This document shows positions 3,470 to 63,874 of a stretch of 64,000 nucleotides of DNA, piece by piece (within the stretch, counting starts at the first letter, position 1; each line of letters starts with the position of its first letter). Below the pieces are notes generated by a model, which did no database searches, was not told the origin of the DNA, and saw nothing but the letters and a program-made list of their open reading frames with translations. The stretch lies in contig OZ001293.3 in the NCBI GenBank assembly GCA_963921275.4, positions 352,001 to 416,000 on the forward strand. Direction: 5' to 3'. This DNA is from an uncultured Hormoscilla sp. (lineage in GTDB: Bacteria > Cyanobacteriota > Cyanobacteriia > Cyanobacteriales > Desertifilaceae). Both the position numbers and the translations under genes were made by a program.

Positions 3470-4093
3470 CTATGGAAACAAGTCGCGGACCCTCAAGGAA
3501 CCCACAGTCCGATCGCCGATCGCCACCTCAACTGCATCGGATAGGCTATAATATTGGCGCTGCTGATAAAGTGGCCCTGACGGAAGCTCAACCGGTTGGG
3601 AATAAACTTCAAGTTGCCTTTCCACAAGATTAACAATCCAATAAACCGGTATTCCCGCCCGCCCATAGAGGCGTTGTTTCAAAGTGCGATCGCGTTCCAG
3701 GGTAGAGTCAGCAACTTCCACCACTAAACTTAAGTCTCGCGCACCTGGATGGCGATCGAGATAATCGCGGGTATCGCCTCGCACGACCACAATATCTGGT
3801 TCCGGCTCGCTATCATCTAGTGTAATGGGTTCTTGCGAGTCTACGTACCAGCCGTCAGGTGCGATCGCTTCCAGAGCATTTCGAGTTAGCTTAGTAGCAG
3901 CGCGATGTTGAGGATTTTTGGGCATTTTCTGAATTAACCAACCTTCCAGCAGTTCGATCGCATCATCGGAGTCGAGGATACCCGATCGAATCATTTGGTG
4001 ATACTGCTCGACCGTCAAGCGCCAAACAGGTTCAGTGGGTACAGCCAGAGGTTGGCTCTTAATTTGCCGATCTGTTTTAGTAGAGACAGACAA
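3470..4093 (-). CDS. Uma2 family endonuclease
   Basis: ELLEGW, EPEPD, LVVEVADSTL, YWIVNL motifs. Confidence 0.9.
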   Translation of the reverse strand: MSVSTKTDRQIKSQPLAVPTEPVWRLTVEQYHQMIRSGILDSDDAIELLEGWLIQKMPKNPQHRAATKLTRNALEAIAPDGWYVDSQEPITLDDSEPEPDIVVVRGDTRDYLDRHPGARDLSLVVEVADSTLERDRTLKQRLYGRAGIPVYWIVNLVERQLEVYSQPVELPSGPLYQQRQYYSLSDAVEVAIGDRTVGSLRVRDLFP

Positions 4094-4209
4094 TTCTTTT
4101 CTCCTGTCAGAGCTTATCCCATCCTAGCACATCCGCTCTGGCTCTATCAGCTTCCTTGACGGTGTCTCCTGGGAGCGCTACTCGCACATTCATAGGAGAC
4201 ACCGCTCAG

Positions 4210-9088: not shown

Positions 9089-11236
<2,148 letters not shown>

Positions 11237-15969: not shown

Positions 15970-17433
15970 GCGAATTGAGCAATTGAGAATTTAGAATCTG
16001 GAGAGTGCGAAGTTCTCCTGAAAAACGACCTAGTATAAAGAGGGCAAGGGTATAATGGGGGTTTCGGACTCCGCGCCCCAATCACCAAGGCTAGAATGCG
16101 GGTTGCAGCCGTACTCCTAAAATTGTCCGGACTGTTGCAATTGGCTATGAAGAATTAGCAATGAACAATTAGCAATGAACAATGAACGAAGAACATGATG
16201 TTACAGATGTAAGCAAAGCATCCCCGATCGCCAAGTTCTTTTTACTGAATACGGTTTTTGCCATTCTCATGTGCGTCCTACTGGTAATTGGAAAGCTGAT
16301 CGGGGCGGCGACAATAGTGAAAGAAGGCAACCCTGATATCGATCAAACCTTCGCTAGCGTGACGACCATTTGGCCAGGTGCAGATCCAGAAACGATCGAA
16401 AACCAGGTCACGGACAAGCTAGAGAAAGAACTCAAATCCCTCAAGGGACTCAAAAAACTCAGTAGTGCTTCCTTCGATGGCAGTTCGCTCATTATTATCG
16501 AATTCCGCGCCGAAGCACCTGTGGCAGAGTCGATCGCCCTGGTGAGAGCAGAAGTAGATGAAAGCGCAGCAGAGTTAGATTTGTCCTCGGACGCCTCTCA
16601 GCCCAAAGTCGAGCAAATCTCCGCCCAAGACACCCCCGTACTCAGCCTAAGCCTGTTTGGCAATATCGACCAGGCAGTCCTAAGTCGCGCTACAGAAGAC
16701 ATCGAAGAACTGTTAGAAAAAGTCCCCAACGTCAGAAAGGTTGACCTGAGTGGCGATCGCAAAAAAGTGATCCACGTGCAGCTGCTGCCCGATCGCCTCC
16801 TGACTCTCAATATTTCTCCCACTCAGGTGAGAAATGCGATCGCCAGTAGCAACCGAGACCTACCCTAAGACGAAGTAGAGAGAGACCAAATAGGCACCCA
16901 AGTGCATTATTACGGTCGGTTTAGAACCGAAGCAGACCTGCGCAGTTTACCCGTCACCCGCCTAGGGAAGGGCAGAGAGAAGAATAGTGTATCTGTCAGA
17001 AATAGCAAAAGAGCGTCGCGACCTAGAACGAGAACAGACTCGCGCTTTTATTAGTGGTAAAAGAGAAGAATTTGAACCAGTAACTAGCGTAGATGTAGTC
17101 AAGATACCGAGTTCGGACACAATTAAAATGATTAATAATTGCCTAGGGGCGATCAAGCAGGCCAGACAAAATCCCTCAACCCGGCCCTACAGGATAAAAT
17201 ACAAAATCGTCAGCACAGAAGCAGATATTATTAACCAGCAACTGCAGTCTCCATTCAAAAACGCTTGGCAAAGAGTCCTGGCAGTTTTTATCGTATAACT
17301 GTTAGCCCTCAGCTGGCGCGAAGCCATCATCGCTGGGTTGTCTACCCTCCTCTTTATGGGGGCGATCGCCGTCCCTTGGATATTCAGTAACACACTGAAC
17401 AAGATAGTACAAGAGAGTCTGATCCTCGCCCTC

Positions 17434-19314
17434 AGCTGGAGTCGAGCCCATAATCACCTCCCAACCCTCCCTTTCGGAAACATGCATGCAACTCTCACCG
17501 CACACAGCTACCGAGTAGATAGCCCTTGTCCTAAGTAGAATTACTCAGGATTACCCCCCTCATTCCTTTCCTCATGCAATTTCACCCCTTATGGTTAGTC
17601 TCAGACTACATATATGCCCAACCCCGGAAAATTCGCGGGGGATAACAGAACCAACCCATATCATCCGCTCCTTACCAACATTTACCTAACTTATCAGGTT
17701 CTCCAAGTCTTACCCAGTCAAATCTTTAGCCCAACATTCATTACCTAGGATTTCACCTGGACTATAACATTAAAGTTACCTTCACCCCAAGACTCTATCC
17801 ATCACCGACCCACGTCAGCATATCCATAGGAGTTACCCCAGGCGTTCGCCTCTTGGGCCATCTCTCATCTCATAGCCCGCACCTTACATCTAACCCGTCC
17901 AAACAAAAACAGCCCATAAAAAATTACCTCGTTCCCCGATCTCATCTCACGATATCCTTAGACCCTCACCTTACCCCCGCAACTCTTCAAGCACAATAGT
18001 CAAAATCCACAACCAACACTAACCACCTTCCCCTTTTGAGCCAGCACATAAAACCTTACTTCGCTGGTTCTACATTACGAAGCTTACACGAGTTTGTTTC
18101 CTCTGATCTTAGACATCTTTCCTAGCGGCGTCACTGACTTAGGCTATCAGCTACCCTACATTTAAGTCCTCGCTTAGCACCGCGACGATTTGGCTCCGCA
18201 GCACCTCACGCGGTTACCCCATACCTAAGAAAAAGTCGGGGTCGAGCTGTCCCTCGCGGGACAACCCTCCCTTTCGGAACCGTGCATGCGACTTTCACCG
18301 CACACGGCTACTGGGTACTAGGCCCCTTTCACGGGTAGGATTACTAGGGATTACTCCCATTATCCCTTACTACTTGCACGTCCGCCCCTTTCCTGGTTGG
18401 TGAGTGGAGCTGCCGGATAACCTTTAGTATCACCATTTAACACTCCGTTTTACCAGTTAAACATTCCTCAATCCTCAACTCGCTTTCGCTAACGCTGTAA
18501 ATGGGCTTATGACATTTTAGAGCTACTTGTACCAATAGTTTACTAGTATCACCGACCCGCGTCTGCGTATCCATAGGCATTACCGGCGTCTTCCGCATGC
18601 TCTTGTCCTGAAGGACTTTGGCGTCTTCCGCACACTCTTGTCCTGAAGGACTCGGTGTGCTCCAGACACCAAGGCATGCTCCAGACACCGCCTAGGCATT
18701 AGCTTCTCGGGCCATCTCTCCCCTCATGGGCATGCGCTATGCGCTGCGCGCACGCTACGCGGACGCACATCTGACTTGTCCAAATGAGGACAGCACCACG
18801 AGGGTTACTTCGTTCCTCTCGCTGAGGTTACTTCGTTCCCTGATATCATTTCACGATGCCTTTAGGCCCCTACTTTTCCCCGGCAGTTATTTGGGTACAA
18901 TGTTAGCCAATTCCCTAATTAACACTAACTGCATTAACTTTTGTTCCAGCGCATTAAGCCTTATTTCGCTGGTTGAGTTTAACGAGGTTTACATAGGTTC
19001 GCTTGTTCTAGCCATGGACATCTTTCCTAGCAGAGTCACCGGCTTGGGCTGCCAGTTATCCTACATTTGAGTCCTCGCTTGGCACCACGATGATGTTACT
19101 TCGCAGCACCTCACGCGGTTATCCCTGTACCTGGGGAGGGGGAATTAAACCCCCATGATTACCAGAGTTCCTAGTTTCCTAGGCCAGCGTTCCGTATATG
19201 ACTACGTTAGGCTGGAACTCATCGCACGGGAATTTAACCCCATGAGTACCAGAGTTCCTAGTTTCCTAGGCTAGCGTTCCGTATTTGACCACGTTAGGCT
19301 AGAACTCATCGCAC
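17434..19314 (-). mobile_element. ORF-less group II intron D (degraded), antisense in the RND gene; hosts intron E
   Basis: 5' GTGCGATGAGTTC at 19314; DV/DVI at 17434-17510; EBS2 UGUAG pairs with exon CUACA. Confidence 0.88.
18234..19227 (-). mobile_element. ORF-less group II intron E, nested in the same orientation in D
   Basis: 5' GTGCGATGAG, 3' CGACCCCGACT; EBS1 GGGAAUU is perfectly complementary to 5' exon AAUUCCC. Confidence 0.92.
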
Positions 19315-21242
19315 GGACTCCTTGTAGATGTATTCATTCTGATGATGGAAGGGATGCACGAGGGGATTTTCGTTAAAGGTCTGTCTTTCGAGCAAGCTGC
19401 CTTGAAAACTTTTAAAACCTACGCAGTGCCAGCATTGTCCGGTCAGCTAACCACGATCCTGGCAATGGCACCATTGATGGCAATTAGCGGCACCCTGGGC
19501 AAATTTATCCGCTTGATTCCCATTAGTGCGATTACTTGCTTGCTGCTCAGCTACGCGATCGCCCTCTTAGTAGATATCCCTCTCTCCCGCTACCTCCTTG
19601 CTAATGTCAAAGGCGGCGCAAAAAAGACTTTCATTGACAAACTTACAGAAGTCGCTTCCGAGAAGTTTCTGCATTGGAGTTTGCGATCGACTGTCCGCAA
19701 CAAAACTACTGCCCGCTTTTGGACTATGGGGGCGATCGCCCTATTTGTTGGCACCACTATTCTGGTGGGAAACGTACCAGGGACTCTGTTTCCCGACTCC
19801 GACCAACTCAAATTGAGCATCAACATCGAAATGCCCCCCACTACTACTCTCGACAGTTCCCAGATCCTAGCAGATGAAGTGGGGGAAATTCTGCGGAGCA
19901 AGGATTACTTGGAGACGGTAGTCAAATTCGTCGGTCAGCGGAGTAAACTAGTAGGAGAAAGCGGCATCAAACCCAACACTGGCAATTACCTAGTGGGCTT
20001 TTCGGTAAGGTTTGTACCTAAAGAAGACCGCGAAAAATTCTCATTTGAATATATCGACCCGCTGCGGTCCGAGTTAACCCAGGCATTACGCAACTATCCA
20101 GGGGCATCTCTCGTGGTAAATTTAGATGCTGTAGGAGAAGGGGGAGACCCGATCTCCATTGAGCTCACGGGCAGCGACATGGACGAGTTGCGCCGCATTT
20201 CTGGGAACGTGCAGCTAGCTTTGCGACAGATTCCGGGAACAGCAGATGTCCGCGACGACTTAGGTCCGGAACGACCGGACGTGAAACTCCTTCCCCGCCG
20301 GGAAGCGATGAATTTCTATGGCATTACTCCAGAAGATTTCGCCCTCCAGGGGCGCTACCTGATGACTGATAACGATATCGGCGATTTCCCGATCGGAGGC
20401 AGACAGGAAGACTTGGAAATTCACCTCAGTACGAGATGGCAGTCCCGTGGTGGAGCAGTTGGCGGACCCACCCGCATAGACGAACTGGTAACGACTCGTT
20501 TCTTCTCCCCAGACGGGGCAATTGCCGCTACCCAAGTAATCGATATCGTGTCCGATCAGGCACCTTTGTCAATTACCCACCAGGATGCTCAGCGCACGGT
20601 CACCGTTTTGGCGAAGACCAAAGATCGCACAGTCGGGGAGATATTAGCAGATTTGGAACCGCAGCTACAGGAAATGCAGCGCCGCTGGCCGGGAGGCTAT
20701 GACTACAAATTCGGCGGAGAAGCGGAAAGCCAAAGCGAGACTTTTGGTTCGGCGGGACGGATGGCATATGTTGCGCTGTTCCTAGTCTTTGCCGTCCTAG
20801 TGATTCAATTTGGTTCTTTCACCCAGCCCTTTATCATTATGCTGGCTATCCCCTTCGCTTTGATCGGCACTTTTGGCGGCTTCTTTCTGTTCTGGATCCC
20901 GATATCTTTCCCGGCGGTAATTGGGATTATAGCCTTAACAGGAATTGTGGTTAATGATTCAATTGTCATGGTAGAAACGATGAATGCTTATCGCCAGCGA
21001 GGCATGAACCTGCGTGAAGCTGCTGCACGTGGGGCTGCCGATCGCCTCCGTCCTGTCCTGACTACCAGTATTACCACGATCGCGGGTGTGCTTCCCTTGG
21101 CCCTGAACGATCCGGTCTGGTTTCCCCTCTGCATGGCGATCGTCTTTGGGTTGATGGCCTCAACTGCGATCTCTCTTTTAGTCGTGCCCTGTTTGTATCT
21201 CCAATTGACTCCCAGTCATAGCTAATTGTCGATCGCTAATCG

Positions 21243-43890: not shown

Positions 43891-46800
43891 TTACTTCATC
43901 TGATGAGGAATCTCGATCGCAAAGGAGGTTCCTGCACCCGGTGCGGAAATACAGGATAACTTACCGCCATGATGTTTCACCACAATAGAATAGCTTGTCG
44001 ATAAACCCAAACCAGTCCCGGAACCCACTGGTTTTGTGGTAAAGAAGGGGTCAAATATCTTGGCCTGCACTTCCTCACTCATACCAGAACCATTATCAGC
44101 AATCATGATTTGCACGGAGGAGGCATCAGTCACTTTTGTGCTAATAGTAATGGTAGACGTCCAGTCTGACTTTTCTCCCTGAGACTTGGCTGAGGATATG
44201 GCATCAATGGCTTTTGTCAGAATATGCATAAATACTTGATTCAGCTCACCTGCGTAGCATTTGACTTTGGGTAGCTGACCATACTCTTCGATCAGTTTAA
44301 TGTCTTGCAGCTGACTCTGCAAGATTACTAAAGTGCTATCAATTCCTTCATGAATATCTACTGTCTTTAGTTCTGACTCGTCTAAGCGAGAGAAATTCCG
44401 AAGCGATCGCACAATCTCGGCAATTCTTTCCGCCCCGATCTGCATGGAAGAGATAATTTGAGGTAAATCTTCTTTGATAAATTCCAGGTCTCTCGCTTCT
44501 ATCTCCTCTTGAATCTCCGACACTGGCTCTGGGTAATACTGCCGATAAATCTCGATAATGTTGAGTAAGTCTTGACTATAGCTATCGGCATGATTGAGAT
44601 TCCCAAATATGAAGTTAACCGGGTTGTTAATTTCATGGGCTACACCTGCTACCAGCTGTCCTAAACTAGACATCTTTTCAGTTTGAATCAGTTGTGTCTG
44701 AGTGCGGCGCAGTTCCTGCAAAGCTGATTCTAACTCCGTTGCTTTCTGACGCGCCCGCTCTTCTGCTTCCCGCAATGCTGACAAATTACACAACTCAATC
44801 TGCGTTTTAATTCGTGCCAGCAATTCATTTTTGGCAATAGGTTTAGTTAAATAATCATTAGCCCCCGCATCTAATCCTGCTACCAGATCCTTGACTTGAT
44901 TTTTGGCCGTCAACATTAAGATTGGTAGTTCATCCAACTCATACTGTTCGCAGATTTTTTCGCAGACTTCATAGCCAGTCATGCGCGGCATCATCACATC
45001 TAGTAAGATTATATCTGGTTTACCTTCCGACTCAATTACTGCTAACGCTTCCTCTCCATTCGTGGCTGAGACTATGGTATAGTTTTCTAAGGAAAGATAG
45101 TTTACCAGTACCTGGAGATTTACTGGCTCATCATCCACAATCAGGATTTTGAACTCTGATTGGAAATTGTCAATTGTTAATGGTGAATTGTCAATTTTTT
45201 CGGATGTATTGGCAAGCGCTTGTTTCACAGCAGGTGGAGAATAGATAGGTTGGTCATGGACAATTCTTTCCCTGGAGACGATCGCCATTGGCAGAGTAAA
45301 GGTAAATCGAGAACCAACGTTAACAGTTGAGGCAACGCTAATTTCGCCGCCGTGCAATTCCACTAGCTTTTTGGTAACAGCTAAACCTAAGCCAGTCCCA
45401 CCATACTCTCTAGCTGTGGAACCATCAGCTTGTTCAAAAGATACAAAGATGCTGTCTAATTTATCTGCGGGAATCCCGATGCCAGTATCAGACACGGTAA
45501 TTGCTAATTGTCGATCGGGCCTGTTTGCTGCTGATATTTCTACCCTGCCGCTGCTTGAGAACTTAATCCCATTCCCAATCAGGTTAATGCAGAATCTGCT
45601 GCACCCGATTTTCGTCTGCATTTGCTAGTGGTAAGTCAGGAGGAATGGCGTTAATTAGCTGCAAATCTTTATTGCCAATCAGAGGTTTGCTAAGGGTAAG
45701 TACGACCTCGGCCACTTCTCGCATGCCCACAGGAAGCAATTGTAGTTCAATATCTTTGTGTTTCAGTTGAGAAAAATCGAGGATGTCATTAATCAGATTA
45801 GACAGACGCTTACCGCTAGCAACAATCAGGGATAGATTAGATTTGGTTGAAGTGGGCAGTTCTCCAGTAACTCCTTCCATCAGGGACTCAGCAATACCGA
45901 TAATGCCATTCGTCCGCAGTTCGTGGGAGGTATTCGCCAAAAACTCATCCTTTTGTTCAGACGCTGCAATTCCCGATTTTTGGCTTCTAAGGTAGCAAAA
46001 GACTCTTGCAGTTGTCTGGCCATAGCATTAAATGACTTGGCCAGTTCCCCTACCTCATCAGAACGTTTAAATTCTAAAGAGTCCCCTTGCTTCCATTCAC
46101 CTTGGGCCAGTTTCTTCGCAGCTGTATTTAACCGCCCGATCGGTCGGATAACCCACCGCGAAGTGAGAATACCAATGGCGATCGCCACCCCCAAGGCCGC
46201 CAGACATAGGAGAATTGTGGTGCGAGTATTAGCATTAATTTGCTCCATAAAGTCCGCTTCTGGGATGACTACCACCACGATCCAGTCAATTCCGCGACTG
46301 TCAGAAAAGGGCGTCACTTGCAGGAATTGTCGATCGCCCTTGAGTACAAAGGTCAGTTCCTTGGGAGTATCAATGTTGCTAAATTCACCAAACTCTGCCT
46401 TTAAATATTGGGCTGTAGCACTAAGGCAGGCCGCTATCTATGGCCCTGAGGCGACTGACTTCATCGATATTTTCGCTTTTGAGCGCGGGTTGATCTGAGG
46501 TAGAACTTGCCACGAGCAGTCCCGAACGTTCTATAATAAAGGTCTCTCCCGATCGACCAATTTCTAAACCTTGCAGGAACTCACCAATTTGTGATAGCAG
46601 TAGATCTATTCCCAAGACTCCCTGCAAAGTTCCAGTGGAGTCGTAAACAGGCTGGCTAATGGTGATCGCAGGTTGCCAGCTGAGAAAATCTGTATAAATT
46701 TCACCCCATGTGGCTTGACCGGTTTGCACGGCAGCTTTGTACCAGGGTCGCTGACTTGCGTCATAGTATTTACTGACAGACAACAGTTTTTGGCGATCGC

Positions 46801-48118
46801 CCAAATTATCTGTAGAATAGATGTGCCTGATCCCACTTTTTTGAGGGTTTTCTGAGACTTTAATCGTCACAGGTGAAGCCACAGTTCCGCCGTCAGGAGT
46901 AACCCCAACAAATCCTCCCTGGGAATAGCCAAAATAAATGTCATCTAGATTTTGTGCTAAAGCAAAGACGCGGTATTGTTGCCATAAGTGACGCTCTATA
47001 TCTCTGCCCTCTTGTATATCTAACAAACCGATTCGGATCGCCTCAGCGGTGCTTTGATTGAGTGCAATTGGTTTTGCCAAATAATCAGTCAGGTGTTGCT
47101 CGATGCGAGCCGTTATTTCCCTACGCAACTGATTAGGGGTCGAGCTGGGAATCGCTTCGGAACCCTCCCGTTCGGAACCTAAAGAGCGACTTTCACCGCA
47201 TCCGGCTACTGGGTAGTAGGCCCAAGTCATTGGTAGGTAACTTTTGGATTACTCCCTTTGTCCCTTATCTCATGCAATTTCGCTCCTTTCCTGGTTGGTG
47301 AGTGGCCGGAAAACCTTTAGTATCACCATTATCGCGTCCGTTTTACCAGTAATCTATTCCTCAATCACCGAAGTGACGGGCTTATAACGTATCTAGAGTT
47401 ACTTTCACCTGAGACTTCCTACTATCACCCACCCTCACCGCACGTCGGCGTATCCTAAGCATTACCCCAGGCATTTGCTTCTTGGGGGCAGGCTTGGGCT
47501 CCCACTCGTGGCTTACGCTTCACATCTGACTGGTCCAGTTGGACAGCTCACGAGGGGTTACTTCGTCCCCTGGTCTCCGGAGCGCGATGCCTTTAGGTCC
47601 CTACTCTACCCCGGTAGTTCTTTGAGTACGATGTTAGCCAACAACAAAGACTAACACTAATTACGGTGACTTTTGTCTCCGGCGCATAAAGCCTTATTTC
47701 GCCGGTTTGAGGTAACGAGGCTTCTATAGGTTTGCTTGATCTAACCTTGGACATCATCGAGCGCGGAGTCGCCAAGGCTGCCAGCTATCCTACATTTAAG
47801 TTCTCGCTTAGCACCACGATGATGTTACTTCGCAACACCTCCAACCGGTGTTACCCCCGTACTTGGGGAGGCGGAATTTAACCCCCATGAATACCAGAGT
47901 TCCTAGTTTCCTAGGCTAGCGTTCCGCGTTTGAACAGGTTAGACTAGAACGAATCGCACGGTGGTAACCTCATTGACAGCTTTCTGTCCGTTGCGTAAGG
48001 AAAGATAGCCTGTCAATCCTACCGCTGCGCAGATTTGCAGCACAAAGGGGACGATGAAGACGGTTCGCAGCCCGACAGTTCCAGAAAGTTTGTCAACTAG
48101 ACGGTTGAGAGTTTTCAT
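43891..48118 (-). pseudogene. Cache-HAMP-HK-REC-HK hybrid sensor kinase with a sense intron and frameshifts
   Basis: Paralog of the 11297 gene; splicing 47959-47132 gives AVNEVTT|QLRREIT; further frameshifts near 46425, 45950 and 45595. Confidence 0.88.
47132..47959 (-). mobile_element. ORF-less group II intron F, sense and phase 0 in the sensor kinase gene; DV degenerate
   Basis: 5' GTGCGATTCGTT, 3' CGACCCCTAAT; EBS2 CCUCA pairs with exon UGAGG. Confidence 0.92.
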
Positions 48119-50424: not shown

Positions 50425-50462
50425 AGCAATATCGATAATATCAGTGCGACTCGTTCAGTGTA

Positions 50463-51297
<835 letters not shown>

Positions 51298-51897
51298 AAC
51301 CACCGGTGATAACCGAAGGGGGACCACTGGCAAGGCTCCATTAGCCTTGATAACTTTTAGATGATGGTGGTGAAAGCCCACCCCTCCAGGTGCAGGAGTG
51401 ACAGCACTTACCCCACGGTAGCGATGGCATCAATCCGTGAAGCGGGTACGAAAGGCGCCCTGGCTGGTAGCCTAAACCGGTCATCGCCGATTTTTCGCGC
51501 AGCGTGCAAGTAGTCACGGTGAGCGAAAGCAAAGATTTACAGTGTCGTTACGACAAACCAGCGTAATAAGGCTAAACACGCTGGCCCAAAAGGGAAAGGA
51601 TAATGGTCATTGGCGGTTTGAATTCTGACCAATAAGCACCGACAATAAACCCGGCATAAGGAATCCACCTAAAACTACGACCAATCATCTAGAGGAACGA
51701 AGTAAACCAGGTACATACTCTCAACCACCGGTCGATAGGTTGAGCAGCCACCAAAGGCGCAACATCTGCTTACATTCGGCAGGTTATATCTGGGAAAGAT
51801 TTCGCGGAGAAGCTAACGCCTTTCTGTAATGGATGGGATATGCTGACGCCCTCACGGTAACGTCAATTGTAAAGTTGTAAGTAGCAATACATACGTC

Positions 51898-53671
51898 ATG
51901 AGCACGATGTCAAAATCGATGAATGAATGGAAGGATATCCCCTGGCCTCGGCTGGAACGGGTAGTCTTTAAGTTGCAAAAACGAATTTACAGAGCGGCAC
52001 AAGAAGGCAATAAGCAAAAAGTTCGCAGGCTCCAAAGGTTACTGGTAAGCTCCCGGGCTGCCAAATGTCTAGCGGTACGACGGGTTACACAAGATAACCA
52101 GGGAAAGAAGACAGCCGGTGTGGATGGTGTGAAATCACTAACCCCAAAGCAACGCCGAGAACTGGTAGGACAGATTGAAATCTCAAACAAGGCTAAGCCT
52201 ACACGTCGTGTATGGATTCCTAAGCCAGGGAGAGAAGAAAAACGTCCTTTAGGAATACCCACGATGCACGACCGCGCGAATCAAGGGCTCCTCAAGATTG
52301 CGCTTGAACCCGAATGGGAAGCATATATGGAGGGGAACTCATACGGATTCAGACCGGGTCGGGGATGCCACGATGCAATTGCGGCAATATTCAGCAGCAT
52401 TAAACAGAAACCCAAATGGGTATTAGATGCAGATATTGCGAAATGTTTCGACAGGATAGACCACAAAGCGCTAGTCGAAAAATTAAATACTACGTCACCA
52501 ATCCGTAAACAAGTACGGGCATGGTTAAAAGCCGGGGTGATTGACAAGAAGATATGGCACACAACTGAGGCAGGAACGCCACAAGGGGGTGTCATATCCC
52601 CACTGCTAGCCAATATAGCCCTACAGGGGTTAGAGGAAGCAGTAATGGAATTAGCAAAGACACAAAGGGAAAAGCGAAAGCTGACGGTAGTCAGATACGC
52701 AGACGACTTTGTGATCATGCATGAAGACAGGGAGATGATAGACAGAGCGCAAACAGTGGTGGCAGAGTGGCTAAGAAGAATAGGGCTTGAGTTGAAGGCC
52801 CGAAAAGACAAAGATAGCCCACAGGCTAAATGGAGAAAACCCGGGATTCGACTTCCTAGGATTCAACATAAGGCAATATAAAGAGGGAAAATACAGAACC
52901 GGCAAATCAACAAACGGAACACCCCTAGGATTCAAAACCCTAATCAAACCCAGTAATAAGTCCATAGGGAAGCATAAAGAACGGTTATCAGAAATGGTAA
53001 CTAGCCATATAACAGCACCACAAGCGGCCCTAATAAGCAGGCTAAACCCGATAATAAGGGGATGGTCAAACTACTTTAGGACAGTGGTAAGCAAGGAAAT
53101 TTACAGCGATATGGACAACTACCTATGGAACATCCTATGGCAATGGGCCAAAAGGAGGCACCCTAACAAGTCAAGTAACTGGATAACCTATAAATACTGG
53201 TCTGTAAACCAGGATGCTAAATGGCGATTCCGAAGCAAGACAAAAGAGGGTGATATGAAGATACGTAAACACTCCGAAACTGAGATAATCAGACACGTAA
53301 AAGTGAAAGGGACCGCAAGCCCATACGACGGGAACCTCACATATTGGAGCACAAGATTAGGCAAAAGCCCCGAACTGAGTAAAAGGGTAGCAACGCTACT
53401 CAAGCAGCAAAAGGGAAAATGCCAACAGTGCGGACTAACGTTTATGGATAGTGACAAATGGGAAGTTGACCATATCATGCCCCTTTCACTAGGAGGTAAG
53501 GACCGGTATGACAACCTACAGTTGCTACACAAACACTGCCACGACAAAAAGACTGCCAGCGATGGCAGTAGCCGTACCCATGACAAGGGTGGCGTGACCG
53601 AGGAGCAGGATGAGGCGAAAGTCTCATGTCCGGTTTTGAAGACGAGTCGGTCCGGTGACGGACTGGCTTAG
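51898..53671 (+). pseudogene. ltrA: Group II intron RT/maturase/HNH endonuclease with a single frameshift near 52797
   Basis: RPLGIP, SYGFRPGR, GTPQGG, RYADD; after the shift GFDFLG, LNPIIRGWSNYF, CQQC...DH...GG...NL..LH..CH. Confidence 0.92.
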
Positions 53672-53677
53672 TTTAAT

Positions 53678-54444
53678 TAGGTACGGCAACTACCATCGTT
53701 AGCAGTCTTTACGTCGTGGCAGTGTATTGCCACGTTGTGCCGCTCTGTAAATTCGCTTTTGCAGCTTGAAAACCCTCCGTTCTAACTTTCGCCAGGGGAT
53801 GGTCTTCCATTCATACATCGGTTTTGAAACCTTGTTCATAACGTTTGTACTGTTACTTGCAACTTTACCTTTGACATTACCGTGAGAGCGTCAGCGTATC
53901 CTACTCATTACAAATAGGCGTTTGCTTCTCCACTCAATCCTTTTCCGGCTACGACCTGCCTAATGAGAGCAGATGTTACGTCTTTGGTGACTACTCTACC
54001 TATCGACCGGTGATAGAGAGTGCGTAACCGGGTTACTTCGTTCCTACAGATGATTGGTTGTAGCTTTAGATGGATTCCATACGCCGGGTTTATTGTCAGT
54101 GCTTGTTGGTCAGAGATAAACCTGCCAACGACCATTATCCTTTCCCTTTTGGGCCAGTGTCTCAGCCTTATTACACTGGTTCATATTTACGACGCTGCAA
54201 ATCTTTGCTTTATGCTCATCATGGCTACTTGCTTGACGTTGACTGGTTTAGGCTACCGGCCAGTGCGCCTTTTATTCCTGCTTTACAGATTGATGCCATC
54301 GCTACTGTAAGGAATATGCTTTCACTCCTGCACCTGGAGGGGTGGGCTTTCACCACCATCATCTGTAAGTTGTCAGGGCTAATGAAACCCTGCTAGCGGT
54401 CCCCCACCAGTTATCACTGGCGGTTTATGCTAAACGAATCGCAC
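53678..54444 (-). mobile_element. Group II intron I (relative of G) with internally deleted IEP; DV/DVI missing
   Basis: 5' GTGCGATTCGTTTAG at 54444; homologous to G domains I-IV; MNKVSKPMYEWKTIPW...AAQRGN joined directly to the HNH tail CACTGCCACGAC. Confidence 0.88.
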
Positions 54445-56159: not shown

Positions 56160-57356
56160 GTGAAATTAGGAGTATTTTGGCGACAGATAGGTCAACCAAT
56201 GGTATATTATCCTCAGGTGGCTAAAGTTACTGGTGGGGTAACTGCTGCCGTGTTTTTCTGTCAACTGTGTCAGAGTCATTCCTCGGGTAATTCTCAAGAA
56301 TGGATATCCATTACTGTCGAGCAAATGGAGGCGGAAACCGGTTTGAATTCTTCGGAACAAGATCTGGCACGCCGCCAACTTAAGGCCCGATCGCTCTTGA
56401 AAGAGAAAATAGTTAGCGGGAAAAGTGGGGCCCTGGAGTTTTGGCCGGACCTGGAGGTCCTAGAAAAAAGATTAGAGGATAATTTGATTACACCAGAGGA
56501 ATCTCAAGCATCTCTAATTCAGGTTCAAGATAAAACTCCCAGAACAATTAAAGAAGATAAATATTTCCCGGTGCGACGTCAAGCTATTGCCGTGCAAGTC
56601 ACTCCGAATTATCAATTTAGCGGTCCCTGGAAGTCTCCTGCTGAATTAGAGGAATTTCAACGGACTTTATTAGAGTATGCTAAGATCCAAGGGTATCCTA
56701 ACCCTTCGGGATGGGTTTTTAAGGTGATCGATGGCATGACTAAAGGGTTATTGTCTCCCTTTTGGGATGAATTTGTCGCCGGAATAGCTTTAGGTGAAAG
56801 TCAGAAAGTTAAGCGGGACTGGGAGATAGAACCTGGTGTTCCTTATCCCGCCTTTGAAGAAGAACGCATTCAATATTACGTTAGCAAAGGAGAACCCCTA
56901 GAAGCAGCAGTCTCTAAAGCCAGTCACGATCTCAGAAACCCCGTTATGGGACAAGATTTGTGGTCCGGGTTCCTCCGCAAGTGCGATCGCATCGCTGAGG
57001 AGGCGTTAGCTGCGAAGAAAATGGGCGTGCAGACCCCCTATCTGCCCTCTTCCTTTACGGAGAGACCGGAAATTACTAAGGAAAGTGTCATGCAGAAGCT
57101 AGCAGCAGTTAATCCGCAATTTTCCCTGGAAGCATCTCCTTCCGACTCCCTGAACGAACTAATTTTAGCAGCGGTGGATAAATCAGCAGAACAGAAAGAA
57201 CAGAAACCAGCATCCGATGTTCCGCCTCTTGCTACTTTGCAGGAGATGTTTAAAACTGCGATCGGGCGATCGCTGGTGAAAAAGCAAATTGCCGAACACC
57301 CGGAATGGGGATATGAAATAGTTGACGGGAACGTGGTAGACTCAATTCCTTTTTAG
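56160..57356 (+). CDS. Hypothetical protein with an N-terminal winged-helix-like segment
   Basis: Long ORF; ETGL...EQ..AR..L motif. Confidence 0.6.
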   Translation: MKLGVFWRQIGQPMVYYPQVAKVTGGVTAAVFFCQLCQSHSSGNSQEWISITVEQMEAETGLNSSEQDLARRQLKARSLLKEKIVSGKSGALEFWPDLEVLEKRLEDNLITPEESQASLIQVQDKTPRTIKEDKYFPVRRQAIAVQVTPNYQFSGPWKSPAELEEFQRTLLEYAKIQGYPNPSGWVFKVIDGMTKGLLSPFWDEFVAGIALGESQKVKRDWEIEPGVPYPAFEEERIQYYVSKGEPLEAAVSKASHDLRNPVMGQDLWSGFLRKCDRIAEEALAAKKMGVQTPYLPSSFTERPEITKESVMQKLAAVNPQFSLEASPSDSLNELILAAVDKSAEQKEQKPASDVPPLATLQEMFKTAIGRSLVKKQIAEHPEWGYEIVDGNVVDSIPF

Positions 57357-57366
57357 AGGGAGAAAC

Positions 57367-57603
57367 ATGAGAAAAGTTAAAGATATTGATGGCTTTAGTT
57401 CCGCCGGACGTCCTCTTCTGTCAGCAAAAGAATGTCAAAAACTGCGTCAGGAGAAAATTCAGCAACAGCAAGAGTCAAACTATCAACTGTTGGCAGAACT
57501 TTGTCGCTTAGGGGAGGAGGACGCTGCCAAGCTACTGACAAACCGCAATTATAGCTGGGGTTATGAAGTAGTTGACGGAGTGGTCAGGGAAAGGTTAGAT
57601 TAA
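57367..57603 (+). CDS. Small hypothetical protein
   Basis: RBS-like GGGAG upstream; shares WGYE.VDG.V with the C-terminus of the upstream protein. Confidence 0.55.
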   Translation: MRKVKDIDGFSSAGRPLLSAKECQKLRQEKIQQQQESNYQLLAELCRLGEEDAAKLLTNRNYSWGYEVVDGVVRERLD

Positions 57604-57782
57604 TTGCAAATTGGGAATTGAGAATGGCGAATTATTTGATGGCAAGTGGGGGCGATGATTGGAAAATTTTTGGCGATCGCATGTGGTTGGTGTACGCAGG
57701 ACATTGGCGTAAGCATGTGGCCGGGGCACAAATCAGTAATATAATAATATGAACCGAAAGATCTCTGATGCCGTGCCCCTTG

Positions 57783-57788
57783 TATACT
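57783..57788 (+). promoter_or_regulatory. -10 half (TATACT) of the IS110 circle-junction promoter; -35 TTGACA at 60159-60164
   Basis: The circular junction reads TTGACA-18 nt-TATACT. Confidence 0.75.
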
Positions 57789-57794
57789 AAGATT

Positions 57795-58851
57795 AGTCTG
57801 GTGGAGTGCGATTCGTTCTAGTCTAACGTAGTCAAACACGGAACGCTAGCCTAAGAAATTAGGAACTCTGGTAATCATGGGGGTTCAATTCCCCCTCCCC
57901 AGGTACGGGGGTCGAGGGTACTACCGGTCGGAGGTGCTACGGAGCGACATCGCCGTGGTGCCTCCCGAGGACTTAAATGTAGGATAACTGGCAGCCTAAG
58001 CCGGTGACGCCGCTAGGAAAGATGCTAATGGTTAGAACAAGCGAACCTATGTAAACCTCGTTAACTAGAACCAGCGGAATAAGGCTTATGCGCTTGCCCA
58101 AAAAAAGGGAAATGGTAGTTAGTATTAGCTCTTCTATCTGGCTAATAACGTACTCAAAGAACTCCCGGGGTATAGTAGGAACCTAAAAGCATCGTGAAAT
58201 GATACTAGGGAACGAAGTAACCCATCGTGTGCTGTCTACCGAGACCAGTCAGATGTGAAGCGCAAGCTACGGTGGGAGGGATGGCCCAAGAAGCAAAAGC
58301 CCTAATTAATGCCTGGGATAAGCAAACAGGGGTCGGTGACAGTAGGAAATCTCGGGCTAAAGTAACCCTAATACGCCCCAATACCTAGCATGCGAAGGTG
58401 GGATAACTGGTGAAACGGACTCAGATAAATTGGTAATACTAAAGGTTATCCGGCAGCGCCACTTACCAACCAGGAAAGGGGAGAAATTACATGAGATGAG
58501 GGACAACGGGAGTAATCCCCAGTAATCCTACCAATGACAAGGCCCTACTGCCCAGTAGCCGGGTGCGGTGAAAGTCGCAAGCCCGGTTCCGCTCTTGGAG
58601 GGTTGGGGAGTGATTCCCAGCTCGACCCCGACCAGAGCACTCAAACACTCTCTCTACTTCGGTCAGGTGAAGCTGGCGTGCCCCTAAGACACCTTAAGGC
58701 TAAGTCTGTTGTGTAGATTAGCTCCCTGCAGGTGAATCACGACTGGTTTGATCCTGATACTGTCCAGTATCTTAGGCCACCCACGCTTTGTTGAGCCTGC
58801 TAAACCGCGGTTAGTTGCATTGACCAGTCAGCATACAATTTGTATGCTATC
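57795..58851 (+). ncRNA. IS110 bridge RNA locus (exonic parts ~57795-57805 and 58634-58851)
   Basis: Target guides CGTGCCCCT (58677-85) and TGTAG (58712-16) match the empty site CGTGCCCCTACA; donor guide CAGTATCT (58765-72) matches the right end. Confidence 0.8.
57806..58633 (+). mobile_element. ORF-less group II intron J inside the bridge-RNA 5' region
   Basis: GTGCG...CGACCCCGACC; intact-looking DV; EBS1 UCUAUCU/exon UGGUGGA; EBS2 ACUAG/exon UUAGU. Confidence 0.93.
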
Positions 58852-59686
58852 GTGCGATTCGTTCGGACGTAAACCAGTAATGGTGAAAGTCTGATCTGGT
58901 TCAGTAAGCCAGATAACTCTGGTCATCATAGGGGTTAAATTCCCCTCCCTCAGGTACGGGGGTGACACCGGTCGGAGGTGCTGCGGAGTAACATCACCGT
59001 GGTGCTGAGCGAGGACTTAAATGTAGGATAGCTGGCAGCCACAGCTGGCAACTCCGCTTGTTAGAGGCTCATGGTTAGAATAAGCGAATCTCTGTAAGTA
59101 TCGTTAACGCAAACCAGCGAAAGGGCTGTTACGCTGGCCCAAAATGGGAAAGCAGTTAGTATCAATGTTGGTATCTCATTGGTATCGTACTCGAAGAACT
59201 GCCGGTATAGAGGAGAGACCTAAAAGCCTCGTGAAATGATATCAGGGAACGAAGTAACCCCACGTGAGCTGTCCAGTAGGACCAGTGAGATGTGAAGCGC
59301 AAGCCACGTGTGGGAGAGATGGCCCAAGAAGCTAATGCCTAGGGTAATGCCTATGGATATGCAGACGTGGGTCGGTGATGTCAGGAAACTACTGGAATAA
59401 GTAGCCTTAAAACGTCATAGGCCCATTCACAGCGTTAGCTAAAGTGAGTTGAGGAATGTATTACTGGTAAAACGGATATGTAAATGGTGATACTAAAGGT
59501 TTTCCGGCGGCGCCACTCACCAACCAGGAAAGGGGCAAACATGTAAGTAGTAAGGGACAACGGGAGTAATCCAAAAGTTACCTACCATGAAAAAGGGCCT
59601 GGCACCCAGTAGCCGTGTGCGATGAAAGTCGCATGCACGGTTTCGAAAGGGAGGGTTGGTACGCGAGTACCAGCTCGACCCCGGCT
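58852..59686 (+). mobile_element. ORF-less group II intron K between the bridge RNA and the transposase
   Basis: GTGCGATTCGTT...CGACCCCGGCT; intact-looking DV; EBS1 GGUAUCU/exon UGCUAUC. Confidence 0.93.
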
Positions 59687-59721
59687 CACTTAAAATTGAG
59701 TTAAAATTGAGGTACAGTGCT

Positions 59722-60162
59722 ATGACACAAACAGTTCTAGGCATCGACAGAGCGCAAAAAGACATTTCATGTCGCTCTGATGCTTGAGAACGGCAAAACT
59801 CTCACCAAAACACTTCTACAACGACGACAAAGGGTTCAGCCAGCTGAGCACCTGGCTAGAGAGACATGAGGTAACGACAGTCCATGCTTGTATGGAAGCC
59901 AGAGCGCATCTATGGCGAAGCATTGGCAGAATATTTGTACTCTGCTGGTCATATTGTTAGTATCGTGAATCCCGTTCGCATTAAAGCTTTTGCGCTCCGA
60001 CATAATTCTTTGCTCAAAGCGTTCAGCGACCGATTGCTGAATCGCGGTAAGGTAAAGATGCAGGTGATTGGAGCGGTGATGCGCAAGTTGTTACATATGG
60101 CTTTTGGAATATTAAAGTCCCAAAAGCCCTTCGATCCGAATTTTTTATCGGCAACCCCTTGA
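59722..60162 (+). pseudogene. IS110 recombinase, frameshifted and internally deleted
   Basis: MTQTVLGID...HACMEA...YGEALAEYL...VNPVRIKAFA joined to RGKVKMQVIGAVMRKLLH...KPFDP. Confidence 0.88.
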
Positions 60163-60180
60163 CAGTTCGACACAGTATCT

Positions 60181-61265
60181 ACATTTAATTGGCGCTCGCC
60201 ACCCGATGCGAGCGCATCGGGGTCGGGGCACAGATAATATTGGCGATCCCATGTGGCCGGGGCACAGATAACATTGGGGATCGGATCTCTTCCCTGACAT
60301 CTATGGTAGGGGTACGGAAGAAATTTATCAGGATATAAACTAAAAGATATCTATTGCCGTGTCCCAGCCCTAAATTTGCGATCTCCTCCTGACATTTGAT
60401 TGACATTATATTCGCGATCGGGCATCGGGTGGCGAGCGCATCGGGCCGGGGCACGGCGTATTTATCATAATAATATGAACCGAAAGATATCGGATGCCGT
60501 GCCTCTACGGAACATTGGCGATCGGATGCAGACAGAACATTGGCGAGCGCATGTTGTCGGGGCACAGATAATATTGGCGAGCGCGTGAGACCGGGGCACG
60601 GCGTTTTAAACATTTTCATTATTAGGGAAAATTTTCGGATACGCTGGCGCTGTGCTCCTACAGGAAATTGGCGATCTCGCATCAGGGGGCGAGCGCATGT
60701 GTTCGGGGCACAGATAATATTGGCGAGCGCATGTGTTCGGGGCACAGATAATATTGGCGATCTAATTTATTTCCTGACCAGCATTGTAGGGGCATGGCAT
60801 CGATAAATTAGGATAGAAACTGAAAGATATATATCACCGTGCCCCGGCCCCACGAATGAGTGACATTTAATTGGCGATCAGGCATTGAGGGGCCATCGCA
60901 TGTTGTCGGGGTACAGATAATATTGGCCATCGTAAGCTGTGATGCATCTAAATTGCATATTTCCCTATCAGGTTAAATCGTGGCAACCCTGTATACATAA
61001 GCGTTTCCGCCATAATGGCCAACGCATGACTATGCATTTTAAATGCGCGACAGCTTATGTTGTCGGGGCACAGATAATATTGGTGATCGCATGTGGTCGG
61101 TGTACGCAGGACATTGGCGATCGCATGTGGCCGGGGCACTGCGGATTTAATATCATAATATGAACCGATAATCTGCGCTATGCCGTACACCTACAGTTCA
61201 TATGAGATCGCATCCAGACATAATATTGGCGATCGCATATGAACGTTGACATTATATTCGCGATC
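60181..61265 (+). repeat. Degenerate array of ~33-bp units (GGCGA(T/G)CGCATGT..CGGGGCACAGATAATATT) mixed with GTAG REP halves
   Basis: More than 10 visible units; the same family occurs at 57670-57780 and 63895-64000. Confidence 0.8.
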
Positions 61266-63163: not shown

Positions 63164-63394
63164 GGTATTAGTACGATACAGTAGTTGGGCGCGAAGGGAG
63201 AGGCGATCGAGGGAAGGAGATCGCAGATAGTTCCCAGGTTCGCAGGTTAAAACCTGCGGCTACACAAACAAAGCCTGCCTGCGCAGGCTAAGATTCAGAT
63301 AAAGGGGCGATCGCATCATTGCAGAAAGCAGCACAACATCTTACATAGGAATGATTTGGGCTATAATAAGAGAAATTAAGTTGGAGAAAGGCTC

Positions 63395-63874
63395 ATGAGT
63401 GAAAGACTAGACAGAATTGAAGCTATTCTAGAGCGGATGGCAGAACAGCGAGAAGCGGATCGCCGTGCGATGGCAGAACAACGAGAAGCCGATCGCCGCG
63501 AACGAGAAGCAGAATGGCGCAAGATGGCAGAACAACGAGAAGCCGATCGCCGTGCGATAGCAGAACAACGAGAAGCCGATCTCCGTGCGATGGCAGAACA
63601 ACGAGCAGCCGATCGCACGGAGATGGCAGAACAGCGAGAAGCCGATCGCCGGGAGATGGCAGAACAGCGAGAAGCCGATCGACAAGAGATGGCAGAACAG
63701 CGAGAAGCCGATCGACAAGAGATGGCAGAGTTAAGGAAAACCGTCACAGCTTTAGTCCAGATAGTTGAGATCCATCAGCGTAACTTTGATGAAATCATGA
63801 CTTATGTTAGAGGTATACAAGTCGAGAACCGTCGCATTTTAGAGCGGGTGTTTGGTCCTGATTTCGATAGGTAA
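63395..63874 (+). CDS. Coiled-coil protein with 11-aa (33-bp) tandem repeats
   Basis: MAEQREADRxx repeated about 7 times. Confidence 0.75.
   Translation: MSERLDRIEAILERMAEQREADRRAMAEQREADRREREAEWRKMAEQREADRRAIAEQREADLRAMAEQRAADRTEMAEQREADRREMAEQREADRQEMAEQREADRQEMAELRKTVTALVQIVEIHQRNFDEIMTYVRGIQVENRRILERVFGPDFDR

Follow-up and report, generated by a model that had tools for sequence, protein, structure and literature searches.

Insertion sequences (IS) of the IS110 group carry a guide RNA gene in their left end, 5′ of the gene for a DEDD/Ser recombinase. This bridge RNA follows a junction promoter and consists of a 5′ stem-loop, a target-binding loop and a donor-binding loop, in this order (PMC11208160). 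Guides on the 5′ side of the loops have the sequence of the top strand at the left target and the left donor, core included, and those on the 3′ side are reverse complements of the right halves (Durrant 2024, PMC11208160). In IS621, a promoter across the junction of right end and left end (RE-LE) has been documented (PMC11208160), and the integrated element produces its bridge RNA by read-through transcription (PMC13626964). Deletion of the IS621 5′ stem-loop lowered binding and reduced recombination slightly, and the loops for target and donor binding worked as separate molecules (Hiraizumi 2024, PMC11208158). Here we describe a degenerate IS110-group element in a 64,000-nt stretch of DNA (the window) from an uncultured Hormoscilla sp. 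(GCA_963921275.4, contig OZ001293.3, positions 352,001-416,000 of the forward strand). One group II intron (J) lies within its bridge RNA gene and a second (K) in the leader of its recombinase pseudogene. The locus is probably a fossil nest, in which mobile elements piled into dispensable DNA.

Group II introns within insertion sequences are known, and RmInt1 in ISRm2011-2 of Sinorhizobium meliloti is the model case (PMC4238363). There, a sense intron lies inside the IS, full expression of the IS needs splicing, and the intron can ride the IS; splicing is required for IS mobility and is inefficient. RmInt1 encodes a protein, is inserted in the open reading frame (ORF) of an IS630-type transposase and occupies its site in many copies, whereas J and K are ORF-less, lie in the non-coding guide RNA gene and leader of an IS110-type element and were seen once, in a dead copy. 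In themselves they resemble the introns and twintrons of Thermosynechococcus elongatus (Mohr 2010, PMC2882425), a cyanobacterial family of ~0.8-kb ORF-less introns that are mobilised in trans, form lineages with different exon-binding sites (EBS), insert into each other and lie mostly outside genes. The word 'transposase' is absent from the main text of that paper. Site-specific insertion in units resembling repetitive extragenic palindromes (REP-like units) is likewise known for IS110 elements (ISPpu9, PMC12288879; ISPpu10, 10.64898/2026.03.19.712850; Tobes and Pareja 2006, PMC1525189); here, by contrast, the host is a cyanobacterium with a REP-like array rich in highly iterated palindrome 1 (HIP1). 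An earlier note on this DNA, made from the sequence alone, pointed out that an intron-split bridge RNA is not known to have been described. Among the matches listed, literature joining bridge RNA, IS110 and group II introns yielded only co-mentions and no intron in a bridge RNA gene. The word 'intron' is absent from a preprint on IS110 cargo. As far as these searches reach, an intron within a transposon guide-RNA gene is undescribed.

The host element and its relatives

The main components of the locus were as follows.

57781-60180, + strand: degenerate IS110-group element, 2400 bp (738 bp minus introns), with a CT core within a REP-like unit
57795-58829, + strand: bridge RNA gene, 207 nt without J, with predicted 5′ stem-loop, target-binding loop and donor-binding loop
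57806-58633, + strand: intron J, an ORF-less group II intron of 828 nt that splits the 5′ strand of the first stem-loop (5′ stem-loop) of the bridge RNA
58852-59686, + strand: intron K, an ORF-less group II intron of 835 nt in the spacer between bridge RNA and recombinase start
59722-60162, + strand: recombinase pseudogene, whose first 270 bp contain at least three frameshifts and which lacks codons ~91-268

Relatives were collected by a scan of genome contigs with P0001, an intact recombinase relative described below. Eighty stretches were matched, 17 of which encode relatives (17 loci); the source genome was not among them. BLAST of 57400-60600 against these loci matched 12, and L003, L004, L006, L007 and L009 gave no match. 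Left-end sequence was present in three of the 17: L001 (Microcoleus asticus), L002 (Hormoscilla sp. GM7CHS1pb) and, partially, L005 (Hormoscilla sp. SP12CHS1). Right ends were found in L001, L002 and L010-L017, and the match of L008 was confined to a REP-like stretch. In a blastn search of plasmids with 58634-60200, 11 records were matched, each over ≤5% of the query, and none contained a left-end relative. A Shigella plasmid match that had been considered as an IS621-like left-end reference was dropped, being a C-terminal recombinase fragment only. In L002 (5192-5559), the IS copy lies ~180 nt downstream of an RNase P RNA gene (RF00010, 245 bits), and a cobalamin riboswitch is located at 3981-4125.

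Homology with L001 and L002 begins, on the left side, after ...GCCGTG(C/T)CCCT, and all three left ends start with TGTAT directly after this sequence. All 11 right ends compared read ...ACAGTATCT, then AC, and then diverge. Because of this shared left-end start and shared right-end sequence, the element was delimited as 57781-60180 with CT on both sides (57779-57780 and 60179-60180). After excision of the IS in silico, the flanks aligned colinearly with two REP-like units that are intact, one at 60415-60545 and the other at 61095-61230. The layout is that of the IS110 group, with a left end of 280 nt without introns, a right end reaching 18 nt past the stop codon and no terminal inverted repeats. 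The stretches 58637-58913 and 59690-60178 were unique within the window (BLAST of 57600-60400 against the window). The element is an IS621-like IS110-group IS, and recombination guided by its bridge RNA placed it at the CT core of a REP-like unit. It thus gives an example of a filamentous-cyanobacterial bridge RNA clade that targets such units. REP-like arrays rich in GCGATCGC are the cyanobacterial style of the window, and the nearest IS relatives came from Microcoleus and Hormoscilla.

In its immediate surroundings, the GCGATCGC-rich array of REP-like units occupies 57640-57780 and 60185-61250. It holds at least two empty units with near-cognate IS targets, GCCGTGCCTCTAC at ~60490-60505 and GCCGTACACCTAC at ~61172-61190.

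The bridge RNA gene

The bridge RNA gene is located in the non-coding left end, 5′ of the IS110-family recombinase remnant. It was identified because its guides match the element's own target flank and own right end. The following features belong to it or adjoin it (IBS, intron-binding site).

57783-57788, + strand: −10 box TATACT, which forms a promoter with TTGACA at 60159-60164 (18-nt spacer) only across the RE-LE junction
58675-58685, + strand: left target guide GGCGTGCCCCT, whose match is the left-flank sequence GCCGTGCCCCT at 57770-57780
58710-58716, + strand: putative right target guide TGTGTAG, reverse complement of the right flank CTACA...
58765-58772, + strand: left donor guide CAGTATCT, whose match is the right-end sequence ACAGTATCT at 60172-60180
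58801-58809, + strand: right donor guide position TAAACCGCG, unmatched to the element's own left end
58830-58848, + strand: hairpin between bridge RNA and recombinase leader, whose 3′ arm overlaps IBS1 of K (GCTATC, 58846-58851)

The junction promoter was conserved at the sequence level in L001 and L002 as TTGACA...TAT(G/A)(T/C)T, and the bridge RNA is predicted to start near 57795. Between the left target guide and its flank, the match ran without a break over 9 nt and took in the core (3 of 2000 shuffles as good), and in L001 flank and guide share one C-to-T change, which is a covariation. The putative right target guide, on the 3′ side of the internal loop of the left target guide, matched over 5 nt, which was not significant by itself (422 of 2000 shuffles). 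For the left donor guide the match was 8 nt (9 of 2000 shuffles), and it was 9 nt in both L001 and L002 (1 and 2 of 2000). The guides can thus be read directly against the element's own target and donor, and the locus is a clean natural example of this.

The right donor guide differed. The window has CCGCG at this position, in contrast to ACAAG in L001 and L002, which is the reverse complement of CTTGT (5/5). In the latter two, a match of this length was found in 231 and 394 of 2000 shuffles. No right donor match of at least 4 nt was present anywhere in the window bridge RNA. ATACAA, in the hairpin at 58830-58848, was considered as a replacement right donor guide and rejected, being unconserved in L001, L002 and L005. 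The inverted repeat of that hairpin has arms that covary (TGCAC/GTGCA in L001 and AGCAC/GTGCT in L002).

RNAalifold, applied to the spliced left end of the window together with L001 and L002, gave a 5′ stem-loop and, after it, a pair of stem-loops that contain internal loops. Covariation in this fold of three sequences only is thin: of 67 pairs, 44 were invariant, 10 had one-sided changes, 2 were compensatory and 11 were broken in one sequence. The 5′ stem-loop is formed by 57801-57805 and 58634-58637 paired with CTCTCTCTAC at 58648-58657, so that its 5′ strand is brought together by the removal of J. The hairpin that was proposed earlier from the joining of GTGGA|AGAG was recovered, with −8.1 kcal/mol (26 of 500 shuffles equally stable). 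The homologous hairpin had −10.7 kcal/mol in L002 (10 of 500) and was weaker in L001 (−6.5 kcal/mol, 169 of 500). The target- and donor-binding region (58659-58829) is free of introns. No Rfam bridge RNA family was matched on 57700-60250 (E ≤ 5) or on L001, L002 and L005 (E ≤ 1); Rfam 15 was used for the relatives.

The predicted loop order and guide logic, the core CT, a predicted sigma-70 promoter split over the RE-LE junction and the position of the guide RNA 5′ of a DEDD/Ser recombinase gene are all as in IS621 and the IS110 group (PMC11208160, PMC11208158). The window gene is unlike them in having a group II intron in its 5′ stem-loop, an unmatched right donor guide and a dead recombinase, and its RNA is ~207 nt in length compared with 177 nt in IS621.

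A scan for sigma-70 promoters and terminators covered 57300-60400. It gave four promoter-like sites against 3.4 expected, which is the chance level, and zero terminators. One of the four, at 58820-58848 (TTGACC, 17 nt, TATGCT; 9/12 matches), has a −10 that is poorly conserved in L001 and L002. It overlaps the closing stem of the donor-binding loop and the next hairpin, and its predicted start falls on the first bases of K.

Introns J and K

Searched against Rfam at the gathering threshold, the window gave nine matches, eight of which were group II intron domains V and VI (D5/D6, RF00029). J and K belong to a family of ~830-nt ORF-less introns with further copies at 9089-11236, 17434-19314, 47135-47959 and 50463-51297 (BLAST). 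In total, the window contains about ten ORF-less copies or fragments and one protein-encoding intron. Some copies are 99-100% identical and nested in each other. Copy E (50463-51297, 835 nt) is of the recently active type. J and K are two diverged members of this proliferating family, inserted into the left end of the IS.

Their placement in the earlier note, with J 25 nt into the IS left end and K just before the recombinase start, agreed with the coordinates. J begins with GTGCG at 57806, 25 nt past 57781, and lies between GTGGA (57801-57805) and AGAG (58634-58637). K begins with GTGCG at 58852, directly after GCTATC and 22 nt beyond the closing stem of the donor-binding loop (58823-58829), and ends at 59686, 35 nt ahead of the ATG at 59722. 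Both were also described correctly as sense introns with an intact-looking domain V: the RF00029 matches were on the + strand at 58554-58632 for J (41.9 bits) and 59608-59685 for K (47.4 bits), against a gathering score of 40. In both, D5 contains the AGC triad, a bulge of 2 nt and a loop of GAAA, and is paired except for one flagged non-standard pair in each; D6 has the bulged GA. On a consensus fold of 220 pairs (RNAalifold, five copies), which was derived from the same sequences that were scored against it, E kept 214 pairs, J 205, K 204, H 204 and G 200. J and E are 77.8% identical, K and E 71%, and J and K 74.5%. No ORF of at least 60 aa with a protein match was found within J or K, and neither encodes a reverse transcriptase or maturase.

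The 3′ ends read ...CCCCGACY, 1 base beyond the end of the Rfam model (58632 and 59685). A 3′ splice site at the GAC of the model end was rejected, as both a nested copy and the empty sites demand one extra base. The 99.8%-identical E copy at 9408-10242 (−) fits exactly between positions 321/322 of another copy only when the terminal T is intronic, and the GGTGGAAGAG-type sequence of L001 and L002 is restored only by excising 57806-58633.

The position of EBS1 follows from its covariation with the sequence 5′ of the intron in copies E, H, J and K, and EBS2 was derived from two E-type sites only. EBS1 of E (TGCACT) pairs with AGTGCA, AGTGTA and GGTGAA, and that of H (GGGAAT) with ATTCCC. J has EBS1 TCTATC (58133-58138), which pairs with GGTGGA at 6/6 including two G-U, and EBS2 CCGGTG (58001-58006), which pairs with GATTAG at 4/6. 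K has EBS1 GGTATC (59170-59175), pairing with GCTATC at 5/6, and an EBS2 at 3/6. The good EBS/IBS pairing claimed earlier thus held only in part, the EBS2 values of both introns being at or near chance. The motif GATAGC (alignment column 184) paired with IBS1 of K at 6/6 and was set aside, as it occurs in all copies regardless of the flank.

The bridge RNA had been regarded as interrupted by both introns, with its full length dependent on splicing. J does split the 5′ stem-loop, and judged from the arrangement a contiguous full-length bridge RNA would come from the window locus only if J were spliced out. K, however, lies outside the bridge RNA body in the recombinase leader, because the IS621 RNA ends with its donor-binding loop (nt 110-177 of 177). 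Going by the −10 position, a transcript from the junction promoter would give J a 5′ exon of ~11 nt, covering IBS1 and missing most of IBS2.

A misjoining of repeated intron sequence into the IS during assembly is extremely unlikely. Intron repeats do break assemblies, and the contig of L005 begins and ends within introns. J and K are, however, unique in the window, with 81% identity at best to any other copy; their boundaries are base-exact against two empty sites, and each EBS1 is complementary to its own 5′ flank.

The recombinase pseudogene

In a three-frame translation against an alignment of 13 relatives, the N-terminal ~90 codons were scattered across three frames, from which at least three frameshifts were deduced. 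These codons run straight into codon ~269. The deleted part contains the residues corresponding to D100, D103 and S238/S239 of P0001, which positionally match the D102 and S241 loops of IS621 (PMC11208158). Two of the four catalytic acidic residues have been lost, as has the nucleophilic serine, and the window copy lacks the intact DEDD RuvC-like domain and the Tnp domain with catalytic serine of an autonomous IS110 element. On this sequence evidence, the recombinase gene of the window copy is destroyed and the element is non-autonomous.

A 92-aa ORF remains at 59884-60162. It matched IS110-family recombinases in 1336 plasmid records (tblastn) and, of 912 candidate proteins, in 694 at E ≤ 0.001 (phmmer). 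The top matches, the majority of them from Microcoleus, were proteins of 323 aa that carry PF01548 and PF02371, and P0001 was 93% identical across 61% of the query length. The family assignment rests on tblastn and phmmer because Pfam gave zero families for the two longest ORF fragments at E ≤ 0.01. The leader carries a further lesion, a duplication whose unit is present once in L002.

59690-59711, + strand: 11-nt tandem duplication TTAAAATTGAG x2, which overlaps the GAGG ribosome-binding site in the leader of the recombinase

Occupancy of the intron sites in related loci

The uninterrupted left ends of L001 and L002 were colinear with that of the window once J and K were excised by coordinate. 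Neither intron was found at the same sites among the 17 related loci, three of which carry left-end sequence. Both sites are empty in L001 and L002, and the K site is empty in L005. The search for further intron-bearing IS copies suggested in the earlier note thus gave none with J or K in these loci. The only other intron in the IS lineage was that of L005, a defective copy of the same IS sub-lineage (90% identical over 58743-58851, with the same CCGCG guide variant). Its left end abuts GTGCGATTCGTT, which on the minus strand is the 5′ end of the intron family, in antisense, near the equivalent of window position 58741. Introns therefore enter the IS left end in either orientation, as J and K are sense and the L005 intron is antisense, and the latter points to landing-pad behaviour.

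These comparisons bear on a history in which J and K entered a live IS and, in the manner of RmInt1, their splicing gated the bridge RNA and the recombinase and damped transposition, the window copy being a decayed descendant. In such an element, 1.66 kb of intron would have stood between the start of the junction-promoter transcript and both guide loops together with the recombinase gene. Such a history is unlikely, with some arguments on its side. Both introns have the sense orientation and leave the guide loops and the ORF untouched, J lies ~11 nt after the predicted junction-promoter start, and the conserved left ends of L001 and L002 offer the same IBS1 (GGTGGA or AGTGGA). RmInt1, inside the ISRm2011-2 transposase gene and limiting the IS by inefficient splicing, is a precedent (PMC4238363). 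On the other side are the lack of another J or K copy among the 17 loci with their empty sites, the antisense orientation in L005 and the chance-level EBS2 pairing.

A related proposal places the system in live copies within the same genome, each with a sense intron in the 5′ stem-loop. There, splicing in trans would gate both the maturation of the guide RNA and the expression of the recombinase from the junction promoter, and bridge recombination would carry the intron to new REP-like sites; the window copy would be a decayed member. In this state, retroelement and RNA-guided DNA transposon would serve each other in a two-way partnership; we regard the proposal as quite unlikely. If a live version does exist, the maturation of a guide RNA can depend on self-splicing, and the spread of a retroelement can be coupled to an RNA-guided recombinase.

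The deletion breakpoints of the relatives show a coincidence. In L005 (1-470, aligned with window 58741-60000), the recombinase deletion begins directly behind GCTATC, at the same base as K in the window. Recombinase homology breaks there at codon 268, the right edge of the window's deletion, and a codon-268 breakpoint also occurs in L008.

Status of the locus

We favour the view that the locus is a fossil nest because of the dead recombinase, the unmatched right donor guide and the 11-nt leader duplication. J and K are also only 72-78% identical to the active type and keep fewer consensus pairs than E. In this scenario, both introns would have entered through EBS-IBS pairing with a reverse transcriptase supplied in trans, and would have persisted because the DNA was dispensable, like the intron-in-intron and intron-in-pseudogene nests elsewhere in the window. 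Read-through from upstream + strand genes and splicing in trans, should they occur, would regenerate a contiguous bridge RNA. That RNA would lack a right donor guide, and the locus would supply no cognate recombinase for it. Splicing would therefore have no role in transposition at the window locus. Splicing of J would also not strictly gate function, because IS621 tolerates deletion of its 5′ stem-loop and a split of its loops into separate molecules (PMC11208158). The locus is thus an example of dispensable mobile DNA collecting mobile DNA in an intron-rich cyanobacterial genome.

Several observations weigh against the fossil nest. Both introns are sense, and both miss the guide loops and the reading frame, for which post hoc arithmetic on the 280-nt left end gives a random probability of ~0.04. 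D5 and D6 of both look intact, and EBS1-IBS1 pairing survives. The intron family was recently mobile, and the genome therefore has a functional reverse transcriptase or maturase at some locus. The element could conceivably be moved in trans, as its ends are intact and so are its left target and left donor guides. Intact 323-aa relatives of the recombinase such as P0001, 93% identical to the C-terminal remnant, are present in the protein database. The CCGCG variant might not be simple decay: it is common to L005 and so is a lineage trait and not a private mutation.

Some of these points would also be expected if the system were operating today, with the locus transcribed, J and K spliced, the bridge RNA working with the recombinase of an autonomous copy and the introns riding on a non-autonomous IS. 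The intact ends and left guides, the intact D5 and D6 in a genome with an active intron family, and upstream genes on the same strand that make read-through possible are in accordance with it. Nevertheless, we hold present operation to be very unlikely. The right donor guide position is unmatched, no second J or K copy occurs among the 17 loci, and the frameshifts, deletion and duplication suggest long neglect. K lies outside the bridge RNA, and the 5′ stem-loop is non-essential in IS621 (PMC11208158), so that splicing of J would be no strict gate. The earlier suggestion that the introns hitch-hike on a non-autonomous IS110 therefore stands in part: the element is non-autonomous and its ends and two of four guides are intact, but no J or K copy was found in the 17 loci. 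The anatomy is real, and a functional interpretation for the window copy is possible but unsupported.

Other intron copies and features of the window

Copy E itself lies within a twintron at 50444-53680. The outer group II intron starts with GTGCGACTCGTTC at 50444, and E is inserted 19 nt from its 5′ end. The outer intron has separate ORFs for a reverse transcriptase (51898-52878) and a maturase/HNH protein (52994-53668). Its D5 is of a different type (53600-53677, RF04357 and RF00029).

In the nest at 9089-11236, the full copy 9408-10242 (−) is inserted into the antisense of the EBS1 loop of another copy. Antisense of this loop by definition resembles the inserted copy's own IBS1. The host copy lacks positions 336-462, and a 5′-truncated copy (10630-11236) lies directly next to it.

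An AcrB/AcrD/AcrF-type transporter gene (16182-21222, +) is split, with profile positions 1-213 at 16182-16865 and 405-1019 at 19342-21222. The stretch between these two ORFs holds copies and fragments of the intron on the minus strand (17434-19314), which are antisense to the gene; one copy is inserted at ATTCCC in the 5′ part of another. Copy G (47135-47959, −) has a visibly damaged D5 and a shortened 3′ end. It overlaps the start of a minus-strand dCache sensor ORF (46421-47227) and may be an intron in the sensor gene.

Near the end of the window, an ORF of 159 aa (63395-63874, +) consists of tandem MAEQREADR-like units. The repeats span 63376-63874, and long ORFs are open in further frames and on the opposite strand as well.

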